NCBI GenBank assembly: GCA_903889905.1
Contig: CAISZI010000046.1
Span: 853 to 64,852 of the forward strand
Origin: Candidatus Wirthbacteria bacterium
Lineage (GTDB): Bacteria; Patescibacteriota; CG2-30-54-11
Length of the DNA: 64,000 nt
Direction: 5' to 3'
Shown: positions 30,469 through 45,020 of the stretch, piece after piece
Position numbering within the stretch: position 1 is the stretch's first letter
Layout of the letters: the number at the start of each line of letters is the position of its first letter
The notes under the pieces: generated by a model
The model's database searches: none
Seen by the model: the letters and a program-made list of their open reading frames with translations, nothing else
Told to the model about the DNA's origin: nothing
Position numbers and translations under genes: made by a program

Positions 30469-30543
30469 TGGAGCGGGTGACGGGAATCGAACCCGTATCT
30501 TCAACTTGGAAGGCTGACATAATAACCATTATACGACACCCGC
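30469..30543 (-). tRNA. tRNA-Gly (anticodon TCC), intact, with encoded CCA
   Basis: Manual fold of GCGGGTG (acceptor 5'), TCAGC/GTTGA anticodon stem, CTTCCAA loop (U33, TCC, A37), ACGGG-TTCGATT-CCCGT T-arm, then CACCCGC-T-CCA. Confidence 0.8.
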
Positions 30544-38549: not shown

Positions 38550-39587
38550 TCATTTTACTTTTCGGGACGTTCTTTTTGCTGCGGCACCAAAACTTGATTG
38601 TATTCTTCGTTGAATCCTTCGTCCTGGTTTTTGTTCCTCTTCCAATTTTGCGGCAGCAATGTCTCGTTCTAAGTAAATTGCAGTACCAATTTCCGCATCA
38701 AGTTTTATATTGTTACCCTGATCAGACGGGTATAGAGGTTCGGGTCGTTCAGAATAATTTGTTTTGAATTGATCATCCAGCTGAGCATGAATTGCTCGCA
38801 GTTCTCCAGGAGAATCTATTGCTTCAATGGTGGAAATCATTATTTTGCATTCCAACCTGGATTTAACTATTCTCAAAGCTAATTCCTCTTCACTGATATC
38901 TCCGTTTGCTGTTGGTACAAGTTCTCCAGCGGCAATTTTGCTGTCGAGACGACTTTGGATTTCGATCACTAATTGTTTCGCTACACTAAGACTGACGGTA
39001 TAGAAAGAGTCTTTAGGGTTTTCAGCTAAGCGCTGCAATGCTTCCTCGACAGTTTGCACAGGTGCTTTATCCAGGGAAAGTATTTCGACTTCCGCTTGAG
39101 TCGTATCCGTTTTACTCCTGCCTCTTGTTCCGGCATAATCAGCCAGGGAATCCATGGCTTGGTAAAATGGAACACAATCCCCCTCAGGATCCAACCGTTC
39201 TTGCATTGTTGAACCAGTAATCCCTAACGCCATTTTTAGAACTATCTCATCTACAGATCCCTGCTCGACAAGAATTCCCAAAGCTATGATTATATCACGC
39301 AAATACTTATAATCACTTCTTTGCTTACCCTGCTCAAAATTTAATATCGGTTCTATTCTAACAAGCCAATTATTATATGAAGCTCTTGCTTTAGCGAGTC
39401 GTTGCTTGGGATTGGATCCAGAAGAGTCTGTGGGATTGACATTAATATCAAAAATTCGTGATGGAATCTGCAGACCCATCGCCAGTATATCTTTGTATCT
39501 ATCCATAACTTCGGCAAGGTCAATTTGTTTTTCCACGCTTGGAACTTCTTCTACTAAATCATCCCTATCGGAAAATCCCGTACCCAT
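38550..39587 (-). CDS. Hypothetical protein (345 aa) in a low-GC block
   Basis: Strong RBS GGAGGG, about 40% GC and no recognised domain. Confidence 0.5.
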   Translation of the reverse strand: MGTGFSDRDDLVEEVPSVEKQIDLAEVMDRYKDILAMGLQIPSRIFDINVNPTDSSGSNPKQRLAKARASYNNWLVRIEPILNFEQGKQRSDYKYLRDIIIALGILVEQGSVDEIVLKMALGITGSTMQERLDPEGDCVPFYQAMDSLADYAGTRGRSKTDTTQAEVEILSLDKAPVQTVEEALQRLAENPKDSFYTVSLSVAKQLVIEIQSRLDSKIAAGELVPTANGDISEEELALRIVKSRLECKIMISTIEAIDSPGELRAIHAQLDDQFKTNYSERPEPLYPSDQGNNIKLDAEIGTAIYLERDIAAAKLEEEQKPGRRIQRRIQSSFGAAAKRTSRKVK

Positions 39588-39620
39588 TTTCCCTCCATAA
39601 ATCTTGAAAAATAGACTATA

Positions 39621-40074
39621 CTTTTGGTAAACTACCGCCTTCTAAATTTTCCCCACCCATAATCACATAATCTTCGATAATTTTCGCTGCTTCTATGAAA
39701 GCTGCTGAATCAAAACTACCATGATCGCGTCGTAAAAACGCTAACCCCAATGCTTGAGCATTTATTGTTTTGATTTCCAAAAGTAGCTGTAGAATCTTTG
39801 TTCAATAATCTAATCCATTTGCTCTGGATCGTTCCGGAGACATATAAGCATGGCGAGGTCTCTTCCCCAACCTTTCTTCGTACTGCTTTAGTTTAGCCGC
39901 CAACTGCTTCAATCTGACCGCTTTGTTTTCTTCCGGAATCTTATCAAGTGCAATCACTGCTGATTCCTCGAATTTTCCCTCCTCTAAAATAGCTTCATAT
40001 AATTCTTGAAGTGTTTTTTCCTGGTCACCAGACTGGTCTCCCACTGCTTCTTGAATAGGACTTTCAACACCCAT
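39621..40074 (-). pseudogene. Hypothetical ~150-aa reading frame interrupted by an in-frame TGA at 39802-39804
   Basis: The same frame continues from MGVESPIQ...GLDY through TGA into TKILQLLLEIKTINAQALGLAFLRRDHGSFDSAAFIEAAKIIEDYVIMGGENLEGGSLPKV*. RBS GGAGGTG lies upstream. Confidence 0.35.
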
Positions 40075-40462: not shown

Positions 40463-41403
40463 TTACTTAGCCTCATCGCTTTGCTTCGTCAATGCCAAAA
40501 AAGGCACGATAAAATAATCCCGGGCAATTTCTGCGACCAGATTTTTCTGCTCCATGGAAAGCCAACCAGGCGTTTCAAAACAAAAAGTACGCTTAATTTT
40601 GTGTGGTTTTTGCCCTTCTGGCACCTTGCCTTCGGCAGCTTGCTTGCCCAGGTAACTTAAATACGGTTCCCAGTCGCCCTTGAAAGGACAGCTGGCCGCG
40701 ACACGCGCATAACCTTCATTGAAAAAATTACCCAGCGCGGGATCGCCATTGTGTGTTCCCACCTCGTCATAGCCGGTCAAAAGCGGGATCCCGGCCACCT
40801 TCAAAGCCAGCCGCAAAGCATCCATCAAATACTGCACGATTTCGTCTTCCTGATAATCAATCGGACCATCCTCGGCCGTCTGGTAGTGCGGACAGTCATA
40901 AACATAAAATCCACTGGGAACTTTAGTCGCCGCCTTGGCAACGGGATCATAACTGTCGGCCACACGTTCGTTGTCGCCGTGCCACGAAAAAACGTATTTC
41001 AGCTCGGGCATTTTGTCCAGGATTTCCAGCAACTGCTCGGCTTTGCGATGGGTTGGTCCCTCGGCCATAAACTGCCGGTTGAGATTGACTGCTTTCTCGC
41101 CAGGCAGTTGCATGTTGCGGGTATTGCGTTGCAATGCTTCTTCGCAAACCCCCACGGAATCGCGACATGATCACCAATTTCGTCAGGTTTACGCGAACGC
41201 GCCTCCAAAAATGCATTCACAAATGGCCCAATCGGTTCAGCTTCATCACCATGGATGCCCGCATTCAGAAGCACTTTTGCCTTGGCCATGTCGCCATAGG
41301 CAAAACATTCGATTGGCAGCAGCCCTTCTTGCTCGAGTTTGAACTCAGTTAGCGGCAACTTTTCTTTGGCTTGTTCAGATTCGAGCACGGCTTCTAATGG
41401 CAT
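40463..41403 (-). pseudogene. Succinylglutamate desuccinylase/aspartoacylase (AstE/AspA, M14-like) family gene split by a 1-nt frameshift in a C5/G5 homopolymer (41149-41153)
   Basis: The N-terminal part (ORF 40999..41403) carries the GIHGDE zinc motif, and the C-terminal part is the ORF 40463..41155. Adding one G to the GGGGG run fuses ...DHVAIPWG to VCEEALQRN.... Confidence 0.6.
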
Positions 41404-41591
41404 GGCTGGATTTTTTTAGTTTTATAATTAGCTATTTCTCGATATTTAATTATAACACAGCGGACATAGGCTGGGTTTCCACTCTCGGACACATCCCACC
41501 GCATCGGCACGCCTTCGACAATTCATGCAATTTGTCATATAATTACTCTCTTTTCTTTAACTCATTAAATTAATCAACAAAAGTCCGCCCC

Positions 41592-43247
41592 ATGGCAGCT
41601 TTAGAAAATCCCGATTCCTCAAACAACGCAGAGCGGGAGCAAACGCCAGGAGAAAATCCCGAGGTCAGCATTCCTATACCCTGGGATATTCTGGAAAACG
41701 TTCTGGGCGTTGACTTACTGGAAAAGCTGCGACTGAAGGAAATTCAAAAAAACGTCAATCAAAGTCACGACGTGACTGTCTGGATAAGGGCCATGACTGA
41801 GATGCAAAGAGCTATCGGACTGGTGAAAGATTATCTCAGGGATATGCGCTATTCTGCTATGACTATTCCCCCAGGTACAGATCTACTGGAACTATCTATA
41901 ATAGCAATGGAATCACCTCTCAGGCCTCAATGGGGTAAACGGGTTCACTCTAGTATTGTTAGCCCTGAAGAACAACAAACCCTAATGACATCGCGACAAG
42001 GTCATCGGCCACTTCGAGCCCTGACTTTAGAACAAAATAGAATTCTGGACGCCCATTCATTTGATGGCTATGTGACTTATGGCAGAAGTTGTGGCGTTTG
42101 TGAACCAGCAATCGGACCTGAATTACGTTATCAGGCAATATACAATATTTGTCCGAATCATGACCAGTACAGGTACTTAGTTGGAGACCTCTGTACGGAT
42201 GACCGCATCGTTCAGTTTCCCCATAGATTTTATCAGACACTGAGTTCCATTGGTCAGACAGAGTGGGCTCAATCCAGGGCGATTCAGCAATTTGTTGCAC
42301 TCGTTATCAGTCAGAATCTTCTTCTATCCCTAGGACATCCTCCACAGGACAAGTTTGATTCGCTGCTCGCAGAAGTCCGCCCCAACGTGGACGAACCACC
42401 TGATACATGGACCGTTGTCCCAGGACCACACGTTCGGGGAGCAGAAAAGATTTGGACTCATAACTATGGTATTCCCAAGGCATGGATGACTGATTTCCCG
42501 CCAACAGCCAAAATCGGCACCGGTGTTATCTTTGAATCAGATACTTATCCGGCCGAGTATTTTGGTGGCAACAGTCTGACTTGGTATTTATTTTCTCAGG
42601 CAATCCAATCGGGTCAGACCATCAAAGACATTTGGCTGCAACGCCAGATTCACGAAGGGATGCACGGCTACCTGGATGGGGTCTGGGATTTGCTAATGGG
42701 AGGACTACCGGTCGACAATCCAGGTCACGAAGCTCTGGTTCAGTATGTATCTAACGACCCGAGACTAAAGACACCCACAGCAATAACCTTCGACGACGTC
42801 CTTAACAATCCCTATCCAAAGGCCTCTCCCCATGTCGACATGCCATTACCTCTCTATCGTGACAGGATGGCCTATTTTGCCATGGGTAAATTTCTGCTTG
42901 CAGTCGAGGAGGCAATGCGAAGTCACCGACACATCGGTACAACGATCAGGGGAAATAGACGGGCGCCAGGTCTCTATGTTGCTCAAGGAGAACCCAACAT
43001 TCCCCATGGTCCGGCTTGGGTAAACTATGGAGATAAAATCGATGGCCTAGGTCAGGATTTATCCGAGCGAGCGCTTGTTTTAACCCATTTATTCAATGCC
43101 GCCATGGATCAGGCGCTTTTGAATGATTTTGCCACACTAACCCCCAATGATCGCATCAGTCAAACACTGACAAGAATGCTGCACGGGCTCTGCCTGGATC
43201 TAGACATTGTCGCCCAGATTTATAACCAACTTAATCAACCCAATTAA
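41592..43247 (+). CDS. Hypothetical 551-aa protein with an HExxH motif (QIHEGMHGY); candidate metallopeptidase in a RiPP-like locus
   Basis: Long ORF with no TM segments. HEGMH is the only recognisable motif. Confidence 0.5.
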   Translation: MAALENPDSSNNAEREQTPGENPEVSIPIPWDILENVLGVDLLEKLRLKEIQKNVNQSHDVTVWIRAMTEMQRAIGLVKDYLRDMRYSAMTIPPGTDLLELSIIAMESPLRPQWGKRVHSSIVSPEEQQTLMTSRQGHRPLRALTLEQNRILDAHSFDGYVTYGRSCGVCEPAIGPELRYQAIYNICPNHDQYRYLVGDLCTDDRIVQFPHRFYQTLSSIGQTEWAQSRAIQQFVALVISQNLLLSLGHPPQDKFDSLLAEVRPNVDEPPDTWTVVPGPHVRGAEKIWTHNYGIPKAWMTDFPPTAKIGTGVIFESDTYPAEYFGGNSLTWYLFSQAIQSGQTIKDIWLQRQIHEGMHGYLDGVWDLLMGGLPVDNPGHEALVQYVSNDPRLKTPTAITFDDVLNNPYPKASPHVDMPLPLYRDRMAYFAMGKFLLAVEEAMRSHRHIGTTIRGNRRAPGLYVAQGEPNIPHGPAWVNYGDKIDGLGQDLSERALVLTHLFNAAMDQALLNDFATLTPNDRISQTLTRMLHGLCLDLDIVAQIYNQLNQPN

Positions 43248-43361
43248 CTCAAAAATTGGGTAGTTTGCACTAAATAATGTCCTGTGGTAGTATTGCCCCC
43301 AACCTACAGAATATTTTTTAACTATAGTTTTATTTTTTACATACTTTATGAGGAGATCCTC

Positions 43362-43571
43362 ATGGCAATCGAAGGTCCCGAAATCAATGAATTGGGAATC
43401 CCGACAGGACCCGCTGAGCATCGCAGCCGAATCCCAAACATCTTCACCCGCCATCCTAAAACAAATGATATTTCTGGTAACGACAATGACGGTGGGGTAA
43501 AAGGAAAACTAAAGCCTAATGGCGCCCAATGTGACTGTGCATGCAGTCCTGGCCGGATTACCTTTATTTAA
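43362..43571 (+). CDS. Small Cys-containing peptide (69 aa); candidate RiPP precursor
   Basis: RBS GAGGAG 6 nt before the ATG. A hydrophilic leader is followed by a C-terminal core GAQCDCACSPGRITFI. It lies immediately upstream of the rSAM/SPASM gene. Confidence 0.45.
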   Translation: MAIEGPEINELGIPTGPAEHRSRIPNIFTRHPKTNDISGNDNDGGVKGKLKPNGAQCDCACSPGRITFI

Positions 43572-43626
43572 TGTGTTGCCTTCAGGGCAGTGAAAACATT
43601 ATTTAACAACACCTTTTTCAAAGGTT

Positions 43627-44976
43627 TTGTTTGTGCCAACCCAATTTTACACACCCGCTGAAACGCGCTGTTTTCCTCTCAACACCGACAACTGGGCGGT
43701 CATTAATCCGTTTGCACGTTTTTCGGTATCAACGGTCAACGCGGCTAGCAAAGCCATTCTGGATTTTTGCCTCCAGGGCAGAACCAGCGCCCTGATAGCG
43801 ACTCAATTCCCGGATTTATCCAAAACCGATCTTGCCAAGGCGATCAAACAGCTTCGTCAAGCCGACCTGCTGTTTACCAAACCCGATCCACGCCTCCAGT
43901 TTGGCCAGTCTGACCAGCTCAGTGCCTGGATCCATGTCACCAACCAATGCAATTTGCGTTGCAGCTATTGTTATTTGACCAAAACACCTGAGGCCATGAC
44001 TTGGTCAACGGGCCAGCAGATCGTTGACGCGTGTTTTCGATCTGTCGACAAACATCAGCTGGAAAAACTACAATTGAAATTTTCCGGTGGTGAGGCGGTT
44101 TTGAATTTTCCCCTGATCCGGCAAATGACAAAGTACGCCAAAGCCGAAGCCAAACGTCGACAGGTCAACATAAGTTACACTTTGCTCAGCAATGGCACGT
44201 GCCTAACCGATATCATGATCCAGTGGCTTAAACAAAATGGCTTCAGTGTCATGATCTCACTCGATGGACTGGCTGAATTCAATGACGCCCAACGCCAATT
44301 TCCGGATGGCCGTGGTAGTTTTACCAAGATTGACGAAACCATTGACCGTCTACTAGTGGCCAAAATTTTTCCTCATGTGTCGGTGACAATATCGGAACGC
44401 AATGTGGCAGGACTGCCCGATCTCATGCGTTATCTGCTGAACAAAAAAACCGGTTATTCCCTCAACTTCTACCGCGAAAACGACTGCTCCGCAACCCAAA
44501 GCGACTTACTGTATGATGCCAATCATATGGTCCACTACTTGAAAGAAACCTACCACGTCATTGAGGAAAATCTGACTGAAACCTGCTTGCTGGGTTGTCT
44601 GACTGACCGTGCCAACCTGTTATACCCGCACCCCAAAACCTGTGGAGTAGGCGACGACTACCTGATTTTTGATCAGCATGGCAATGTTGCGCAGTGCCAG
44701 ATGGAAATCACCAAACCCGTCACCACCATGCAAAGCAACGACCCACTGGACGATCTCCGCCGTACTAAAACTGGGATCCAGAATTTACCTGTGGAACAAA
44801 AGCAAGGCTGCAAAGATTGCTTCTGGCGTTACTTTTGCACCGGTGGCTGCCCACTGCTCACCCATCGCGCCACCGGCCGCTTTGACCTGCCGTCACCAAA
44901 TTGTTCCCTCTACAAACAAATCTTTCCCGAAATTGTCCGACTCGAGGGCTTGAGGCTCCTGAAATACGGCAAATAA
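43627..44976 (+). CDS. Radical SAM / SPASM-domain peptide-modifying enzyme with an N-terminal RRE-like extension
   Basis: CNLRCSYC (Cx3Cx2C), GGEA and a SPASM motif CKDCFWRYFCTGGCP plus upstream Cys. About 95 aa precede the rSAM core. Confidence 0.85.
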   Translation: MFVPTQFYTPAETRCFPLNTDNWAVINPFARFSVSTVNAASKAILDFCLQGRTSALIATQFPDLSKTDLAKAIKQLRQADLLFTKPDPRLQFGQSDQLSAWIHVTNQCNLRCSYCYLTKTPEAMTWSTGQQIVDACFRSVDKHQLEKLQLKFSGGEAVLNFPLIRQMTKYAKAEAKRRQVNISYTLLSNGTCLTDIMIQWLKQNGFSVMISLDGLAEFNDAQRQFPDGRGSFTKIDETIDRLLVAKIFPHVSVTISERNVAGLPDLMRYLLNKKTGYSLNFYRENDCSATQSDLLYDANHMVHYLKETYHVIEENLTETCLLGCLTDRANLLYPHPKTCGVGDDYLIFDQHGNVAQCQMEITKPVTTMQSNDPLDDLRRTKTGIQNLPVEQKQGCKDCFWRYFCTGGCPLLTHRATGRFDLPSPNCSLYKQIFPEIVRLEGLRLLKYGK

Positions 44977-44990
44977 CTATTATTTGAACC

Positions 44991-45020
44991 AAACCGCGCT
45001 TTCAAGCAGCGCGGTTTTTT
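44991..45020 (+). terminator. Rho-independent terminator after the rSAM gene
   Basis: AAACCGCGCT-ttcaag-CAGCGCGGTTT followed by TTTTT. Confidence 0.6.

Follow-up and report, generated by a model that had tools for sequence, protein, structure and literature searches.

The window analysed here is a stretch of 64,000 nucleotides (nt) from contig CAISZI010000046.1 of a Candidatus Wirthbacteria bacterium, and an open reading frame (ORF) scan places three same-strand ORFs in it at 41592-43247, 43362-43571 and 43627-44976 (forward strand), which encode a 551-residue protein with an HExxH motif, a 69-residue precursor-like peptide and a radical S-adenosylmethionine (SAM) enzyme with a SPASM region, respectively. 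The coordinates are the same as those in an earlier note on this DNA, which had proposed that the three co-directional genes, closed by a terminator, form a locus for a peptide that is ribosomally synthesized and modified post-translationally (RiPP). The genes and the terminator are all present. The intrinsic terminator (44991-45017, forward strand) consists of a 10-bp stem with six G-C pairs followed by a T-run, has a calculated energy of -19.5 kcal/mol (z = -3.3 against shuffled sequences) and is the sole strong terminator; in the two gaps that separate the genes, the scan detected nothing resembling a terminator. A hairpin that follows the peptide gene, ahead of the enzyme gene, was considered as an attenuator and was rejected, as it scores no better than shuffled sequence (z = -0.9). 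The peptide gene begins 114 nt after the gene of the 551-residue protein and is separated by 61 nt from the GTG start of the enzyme gene. Of the proposed three-part RiPP locus, the pair formed by the peptide and the radical SAM enzyme stands, whereas the HExxH protein does not hold its place as a partner.

The enzyme gene (43633-44976, forward strand) encodes 447 residues from GTG 43633, which is also the start and length of the public copy of the protein (P0002); an alternative TTG at 43627 would give 449 residues. The motifs quoted in the earlier note, CNLRCSYC, GGEA and the SPASM motif CKDCFWRYFCTGGCP, are all found in the protein. CNLRCSYC (43948-43971, forward strand) is the CxxxCxxC [4Fe-4S] site, the three cysteines of which are invariant in 65 aligned sequences, and the Pfam model Radical_SAM (PF04055) matches with 49 bits against a gathering score of 29.5, together with Fer4_12. 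By the CxxxCxxC site and the PF04055 score the enzyme belongs to the radical SAM superfamily. The SPASM region (44641-44904, forward strand) is equally clear, with seven cysteines that are invariant in the same 65-sequence alignment and are arranged as C337-x12-G350-x4-C355, C393-x2-C396-x5-C402-x3-C406 and C424 (447-residue numbering). This agrees with the SPASM pattern Cx9-15Gx4C ... Cx2Cx5Cx3C ... C, which accommodates two auxiliary clusters, and the enzyme also matches the SPASM enzymes CteB, anSME and TigE in fold. Viral searches returned distant and partial radical SAM matches only, and a viral origin of the enzyme was therefore discarded.

Altogether, 80 NCBIfam families match the enzyme, all below their curated cut-offs, and the top-scoring ones are all peptide maturases. 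The highest scores were obtained with the models of PapB (NF047865; 151 bits against a cut-off of 340, covering 322 of 330 model positions), the nif11-type maturase (TIGR04064; 147 bits in two partial stretches against 518.7), QhpD (TIGR03906; 121 bits against 453), the SCIFF maturase (TIGR03974; 117 bits against 425), CcpM (109 bits) and DynA (108 bits). The anaerobic sulfatase-maturating enzyme (anSME; TIGR03942) follows with 87 bits against 349 and FxsB (TIGR04269) with 55.9 bits against 370, so that the enzyme is a member of none of these families. The view that it belongs to no recognised family is fair, since it reaches no curated cut-off.

The AlphaFold model of the enzyme has a predicted local distance difference test (pLDDT) score of 94.7. 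Its N-terminal extension (residues 1 to ~80; 43633-43872, forward strand; pLDDT 88-96) is modelled with strands at residues 4-6, 12-15, 20-24 and 32-36, followed by helices at residues 37-48, 52-58 and 64-76. As the earlier note had anticipated, this segment is predicted to be a domain of the RiPP recognition element (RRE) type, namely an RRE-like winged helix of strands followed by three helices, comparable to the PqqD-like domain (three-stranded sheet plus three helices) of RRE-bearing maturases, and the model aligns with CteB, which has an RRE. CteB is the best match among solved structures in Foldseek (E = 7e-22, TM score 0.68-0.72, 454-462 aligned columns, essentially the full length), followed by TigE, anSME and ChlB, and is also the best solved structure by sequence (2.5e-25).

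The 69-residue peptide (43362-43571, forward strand; public gene call P0122) is preceded by a GAGGAG ribosome-binding site (43350-43355, forward strand) 6 nt ahead of its ATG at 43362, and its sequence is exactly as the earlier note had quoted it. A leader-like stretch of ~56 residues runs into QCDCACSPGRITFI, and the C-terminal end reads RITFI. Its motif Cys57-Asp58-Cys59-Ala60-Cys61 (43530-43544, forward strand), which is the hallmark of the whole enzyme family, forms a C-D-C-A-C core, which is not the C-x3-D/E repeat required of the PapB family, and no PapA-like precursor was found at the window locus. No NCBIfam model matches the peptide at E <= 0.1, and it shows neither a SCIFF signature nor a match to the Nif11-like leader family. 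The arrangement is that of a RiPP precursor beside its enzyme: a small ORF, a strong ribosome-binding site and a motif that co-occurs with the enzyme family. The recurrence of DCAC, either beside the homologues of the enzyme or as part of them, makes the small ORF more than a chance reading frame.

About 1,800 proteins match the enzyme at E < 1e-20, the best being 42-49% identical; those with a named source come mostly from Chloroflexota, and the names of the listed relatives stop at 'radical SAM', 'SPASM domain-containing' or 'uncharacterized' protein. Most aligned relatives are 485-550 residues long, and the added N-terminal segment bears the motif of the window peptide, as in QCDCACV, EDCACP, GQCDCDGGDCACD and DCDCDCDCACV. 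This fused form is the one seen in most members from Chloroflexota, Nostoc and Actinomycetota. A separate small ORF with the motif lies directly upstream of the enzyme gene in the window and in loci L001, L082, L084, L033 and L035. L001 has two such ORFs (...SENCDCACACAS... and ...LIDCACV...), and one each is present in L082 (...ARDCACDCICACACNE...), L084 (...LCQCQCDCACD...), L035 (...LYCQDDCACENNN) and L033 (...YGQCDACGNDNNLE). At L084 6822-6984 the public gene call (48 residues, no cysteine) is in the wrong frame, and the DCAC precursor ...SLCQCQCDCACDMVKQTEKK... is read in a frame that overlaps it; databases are likely to overlook or miscall the small precursors of this family.

The association of the motif with the enzyme was quantified by counting DCAC in forward frames at most 750 nt upstream of the catalytic core, where it occurs in 35 of 50 family loci, compared with two of 1,457 control windows drawn from the same loci. 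The looser pattern DC.C gives 38 of 50 and 36 of 1,457, respectively. Among the best protein matches, [DNEQ]CxC is present in the N-terminal part of 83 of 119, the rest being mostly DCxxC variants or truncated gene calls, and for DCAC itself the N-terminal parts of these 119 relatives give a count of 79. The motif of the small ORF is conserved beside the homologues of the enzyme, which is the opposite of what the earlier note had named as grounds for refutation. Judged from these sequence comparisons, the window is the split form of a Rosetta-stone pair, which argues strongly for joint action of the peptide and the enzyme, and the small ORF and the radical SAM/SPASM enzyme are a functionally linked pair that has stayed together across evolution.

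The motif varies in copy number from 1 to 4 across the family and lies ahead of the RRE-like domain, between this domain and the catalytic core, or in both places. Seven fused members (L012, L020, L023, L028, L029, L040 and L041) are without the RRE-like domain and have the motif only ~20-45 residues before the CxxxCxxC core. In a neighbour-joining tree of the catalytic region the split forms are basal and the window is sister to a single fused clade; as this tree carries no support values, the placement is only suggestive. A search of metagenome contigs for further split-form loci gave six family members only, all fused or truncated. The radical SAM gene is the only neighbour common to the window and its closest split-form loci. 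A protein of ~330 residues with a C-terminal Trans_reg_C domain (OmpR-type winged helix), which may be a dedicated regulator, adjoins the radical SAM gene in these closest loci (L001 6341-7330; L082 8337-9335; L084 5724-6713 and 8315-9334) and is absent from the window.

In the genomic context of the fused clade, 30 of 41 loci have a same-strand gene for a large protein of 600-1,600 residues (mostly ~900-1,000) that terminates shortly before the radical SAM gene; clustering of neighbours places the upstream large protein in 35 of 45 loci. Pfam searches of nine sampled upstream proteins identified TPR repeats in all nine and a STAND-type nucleoside triphosphatase (NTPase) domain (AAA_16, NACHT, NB-ARC or nSTAND) in all but two, and the upstream protein from L011 has no Pfam match. 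Genes for STAND NTPase-TPR proteins lie directly upstream of the radical SAM gene in loci ranging from L002 to L044, for example at L004 3826-6675, L024 4150-6849 and L034 1844-6604. Also near the fused loci are TIR-AAA proteins (14 loci; e.g. L007 2013-4100), trypsin-EAD9 proteins (five loci; e.g. L014 1275-2168) and Trypco1 proteins (five loci; e.g. L008 579-941). Kaur et al. (2020; PMC7159879) described conflict systems dependent on nucleoside triphosphates (NTPs), including a similar but distinct one in which the radical SAM/SPASM protein FxsB is accompanied by a peptide, by an HExxH protein and by an AP-ATPase-TPR protein, and the neighbours of the fused clade share the gene vocabulary of these systems. 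In the literature covered, which is partial, no account was found of a radical SAM arm with a fused motif in NTP-dependent conflict systems.

We consider it fairly probable that the conserved unit is a two-gene RiPP-like cassette, consisting of the peptide and the radical SAM/SPASM enzyme with its RRE-like domain, which probably cross-links Cys to Asp. In the proposed mechanism, the RRE-like domain would bind the N-terminal part of the 69-residue peptide, and the C-terminal core QCDCACSPGRITFI would enter the active site of the enzyme. Cleavage of SAM by the CxxxCxxC cluster would generate a 5'-deoxyadenosyl radical, which would abstract hydrogen from the core, and a cysteine thiolate, probably bound at the open site of the first auxiliary cluster, would capture the resulting carbon radical. 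The product would contain one or more intramolecular thioethers, most likely from Cys to the β- or γ-carbon of the conserved Asp. This linkage is suggested because the nearest models are PapB, QhpD and CteB and because both Asp and Cys are conserved in the motif. CteB likewise has a seven-cysteine SPASM region with an open site at the first auxiliary cluster. For PapB, Cys/Asp or Cys/Glu thioethers are described (PMC9413430).

Compared with known systems, the cassette looks like a Cys cross-linking system of the ranthipeptide, SCIFF or QhpD type, yet it fails the curated test of every named family and its precursor signature differs. PapB, the maturase of freyrasin-type ranthipeptides, is a radical SAM/SPASM peptide maturase with the best-scoring curated model, and it joins Cys to Asp or Glu, the former two residues also being those conserved in DCAC; the score of the window enzyme is nevertheless far under the PapB cut-off, PapB substrates carry C-x3-D repeats instead of C-D-C-A-C, and nothing like PapA accompanies the enzyme. 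CteB of the SCIFF systems (PDB entries 5WGG and 5WHY) provides the best full-length solved structure, including an N-terminal RRE, and resembles the window enzyme in its seven-cysteine SPASM region and in having a Cys-rich precursor beside it; the two enzymes are only 20% identical, however, the score is again far from the cut-off, and the six-cysteine SCIFF precursor has a signature which the window peptide lacks. QhpD forms Cys-to-Asp/Glu thioethers and, in acting on QhpC, is likewise a radical SAM/SPASM enzyme for a small Cys- and Asp-containing polypeptide, but its model is not reached either, qhpA, qhpB and peptidase genes are absent and the product here is no dehydrogenase subunit. Borosins such as OphMA are fused precursor-enzyme proteins in which an N-methyltransferase carries a C-terminal core. 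The fused relatives of the window enzyme resemble them in having a presumed substrate segment on the same polypeptide as the modifying enzyme, but differ in that the enzyme is of the radical SAM/SPASM type, the motif is N-terminal and self-modification is putative. The FxsB or FxSxx-COOH systems (PMC7159879) have a comparable set of genes, in which a radical SAM/SPASM enzyme occurs with a small peptide that evolves fast and with an HExxH protein, in a context of STAND (AP-ATPase)-TPR and TIR proteins; each fused relative typically follows a STAND-TPR gene directly, and genes for TIR, trypsin-EAD9 and Trypco1 proteins are close by. The similarity to FxsB is nevertheless low (56 bits against 370), the motif is DCAC instead of a C-terminal FxSxx, and no STAND, TIR or vWA genes were found in the window. 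Literature searches on the DCAC motif, on fused radical SAM substrate motifs and on radical SAM RiPPs in Chloroflexota or the candidate phyla radiation yielded nothing specific in the part covered.

Several observations weigh against the cross-linking cassette. The proposed chemistry has no source other than the nearest models, none of which comes near its cut-off, and the C-D-C-A-C spacing differs from the C-x3-D of PapB. The window was found to contain neither an exporter nor an immunity gene nor any recognised leader peptidase, the leader regions of the split-form peptides cannot be aligned with one another, and two short-form relatives (L170 and L086) show no motif ORF, the contigs of both being truncated. 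Furthermore, most relatives have the motif fused to the enzyme, of which it could be a part, such as a metal or cluster ligand. Put more generally, DCAC would be an accessory element that serves the enzyme as a metal or Fe-S ligand, as a redox relay or as a pseudo-substrate; usually contained in the N-terminus, it would have become a separate small subunit in the window, and the true substrate would be encoded elsewhere. The prevalence of fused forms, the Cys-rich character of the motif and the window's want of an exporter, an immunity gene and a conserved peptidase all agree with such a role, as does the fact that the conserved neighbour of the fused clade is a STAND NTPase and not a set of RiPP tailoring or export genes. 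A structural metal site, however, would not be expected to vary in copy number and position as this motif does, and the seven SPASM cysteines already cover two auxiliary clusters. The RRE-like domain is kept in the split forms, where there is a free peptide to recruit, its loss being confined to some fused forms in which the tether is short, and the split peptides have long, fast-diverging extensions like the leaders of RiPPs. These substrate-like traits make an accessory role unlikely, and DCAC is clearly better regarded as a substrate than as an accessory element. An assignment of the enzyme to known chemistry was suggested by a segment that occurs in the window peptide only, C61-S-P-G-R65 (43542-43556), which fits the sulfatase formylglycine motif C-x-P-x-R (more fully, C/S-x-P/A-x-R). 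The enzyme might then be an anSME-like generator of formylglycine, or else a maturase of cofactors comparable to QhpD, MftC or PqqE; anSME structures are good fold matches, and the QhpD model gives one of the higher scores. C-x-P-x-R is missing, however, from other motifs of the family, for example DCACPTER, DCACDLSP and DCACENNN, and as it is not conserved in other members the CSPGR segment is probably coincidental. The anSME reading of this segment was rejected on that ground. The anSME and QhpD scores are about a quarter of their cut-offs, and no sulfatase, qhpABC, mft or pqq genes are nearby. Eight cysteines are typical of the SPASM region of anSME, compared with the seven conserved in the window enzyme, and on balance an anSME or cofactor-maturase function is highly improbable.

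The position of the 551-residue protein (41592-43247, forward strand) was examined separately. The HEGMH reported in the earlier note is present at residues 354-358 (42651-42665), and on the three-gene model this protein would be a dedicated component of the pathway, either a leader peptidase or a hydroxylase of the α-ketoglutarate (aKG)-HExxH type, acting on the same peptide. The gene is co-directional with the other two, the 114 nt that separate it from the downstream peptide gene contain no terminator-like site, and ahead of it is one promoter-like site (TCGACA-17-TATAAT, 41515-41543, forward strand), which has 11 of 12 consensus matches; that site is a consensus match only, the regional total of such sites equals the shuffle expectation and the consensus may not be that of the phylum. 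The guanine plus cytosine (GC) contents of the three genes are similar (0.476, 0.476 and 0.496), and co-transcription of the 551-residue protein with the cassette is plausible. HExxH proteins are also known to accompany radical SAM/SPASM enzymes in FxSxx-COOH systems (PMC7159879). The protein is nevertheless a near-orphan: a word-indexed search of 5.8 billion proteins found only the protein itself, and an exhaustive HMMER search of 1.84 billion representatives found a single relative, P0124 (392 residues, E = 2e-9). The two proteins have in common HEG(M/S)HG, D362, N376-P377-x2-E380 and a C-terminal YNxLNQP. E380 is located 22 residues past the second histidine in both, a gluzincin-like spacing, although it is based on two sequences only, and the shared HEGxHG and Glu count in favour of the three-gene model; the protein is possibly a gluzincin-like metallopeptidase. 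P0124 is tightly flanked by an HTH_17 excisionase-like gene on one side and by a large serine recombinase on the other (L087 5814-8636; also L088 and L089), with no radical SAM gene nearby, which suggests that this HExxH protein family is carried by mobile elements. The co-occurrence that the earlier note had wanted checked was borne out in part: the peptide motif recurs with the enzyme family, but neither tblastn nor neighbour comparison detected a relative of the 551-residue protein in ~50 family loci. The protein has no matches in Pfam, NCBIfam, PHROGs or PADLOC, with no peptidase or hydroxylase model among them, none in IMG/VR and no credible match in the PDB by sequence or profile. TIGR04267, the aKG-HExxH peptide β-hydroxylase family, is not among NCBIfam matches at E <= 0.1. 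The AlphaFold model built from the two-sequence alignment is unusable (pLDDT 31). Since no relative occurs in the family loci and the lone relative lies in a recombinase module without a radical SAM gene, the 551-residue protein does not appear to be a conserved partner of the cassette, and the three-gene model is rather unlikely. It may be a lineage-specific add-on, for example a leader peptidase, outside the conserved system.

For the family as a whole, we tentatively suggest a wider scheme that we regard as possible but doubtful. The DCAC radical SAM/SPASM enzymes would be an undescribed class that modifies peptides or itself, and the ancestral split form, persisting in Patescibacteria and in this window among them, would mature a free peptide with Cys/Asp cross-links. 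In a derived clade, that of bacteria with a filamentous or multicellular habit, leader and core would have fused to the enzyme, which would act on its own N-terminus and serve as a signal or effector arm of STAND-NTPase/TPR conflict systems, with or without TIR. The close association of STAND NTPase, TPR and TIR proteins with the fused clade suggests a second, independent link between peptide modification by radical SAM enzymes and bacterial conflict systems besides that of FxsB. Radical SAM/SPASM peptide maturases are a main source of new peptide chemistry, and the locus exposes a family of ~1,800 enzymes that curated models leave unnamed, with a five-residue C-D-C-A-C signature that points to the likely substrate. 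The split and fused forms of the pair offer two experimental handles: the two genes of the window constitute a minimal portable expression cassette, and the fused relatives are a test case for whether a radical SAM enzyme can carry its own substrate. Modified-peptide cassettes are, moreover, poorly studied in genome-reduced Patescibacteria.

The surroundings of the locus are of the housekeeping type, with pilT upstream and proS and mreBCD downstream, and the prolyl-tRNA synthetase (ProRS) of the window is 65-70% identical to proteins of Patescibacteria (Roizmanbacteria and Peregrinibacteria), which places the host in the candidate phyla radiation. A horizontally acquired island was considered and dropped as weak, the GC contents of the three genes (0.48-0.50) being near the 0.50 of the window. 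PADLOC reported no known defence system. Between pilT and the cassette, three orphan ORFs of 345, 54 and 90 residues (38550-40074, reverse strand) have GC contents of 0.41-0.43, those of the 345- and 90-residue genes being clearly low, and gave no Pfam, NCBIfam or PHROG match. Across the 64 kb of the window, Rfam matches a single tRNA gene (30472-30543, reverse strand) and nothing else. Divergent from the gene of the 551-residue protein, overlapping ORFs of 134 and 230 residues (40463-41403, reverse strand) together make up one frameshifted zinc carboxypeptidase or deacylase of the M14/AstE-AspA-like type, with HGDE ... IPWGF ... NLNRQF. Either a pseudogene or an error in the assembly would account for the pair, and any tie between it and the peptide cassette would be pure speculation.

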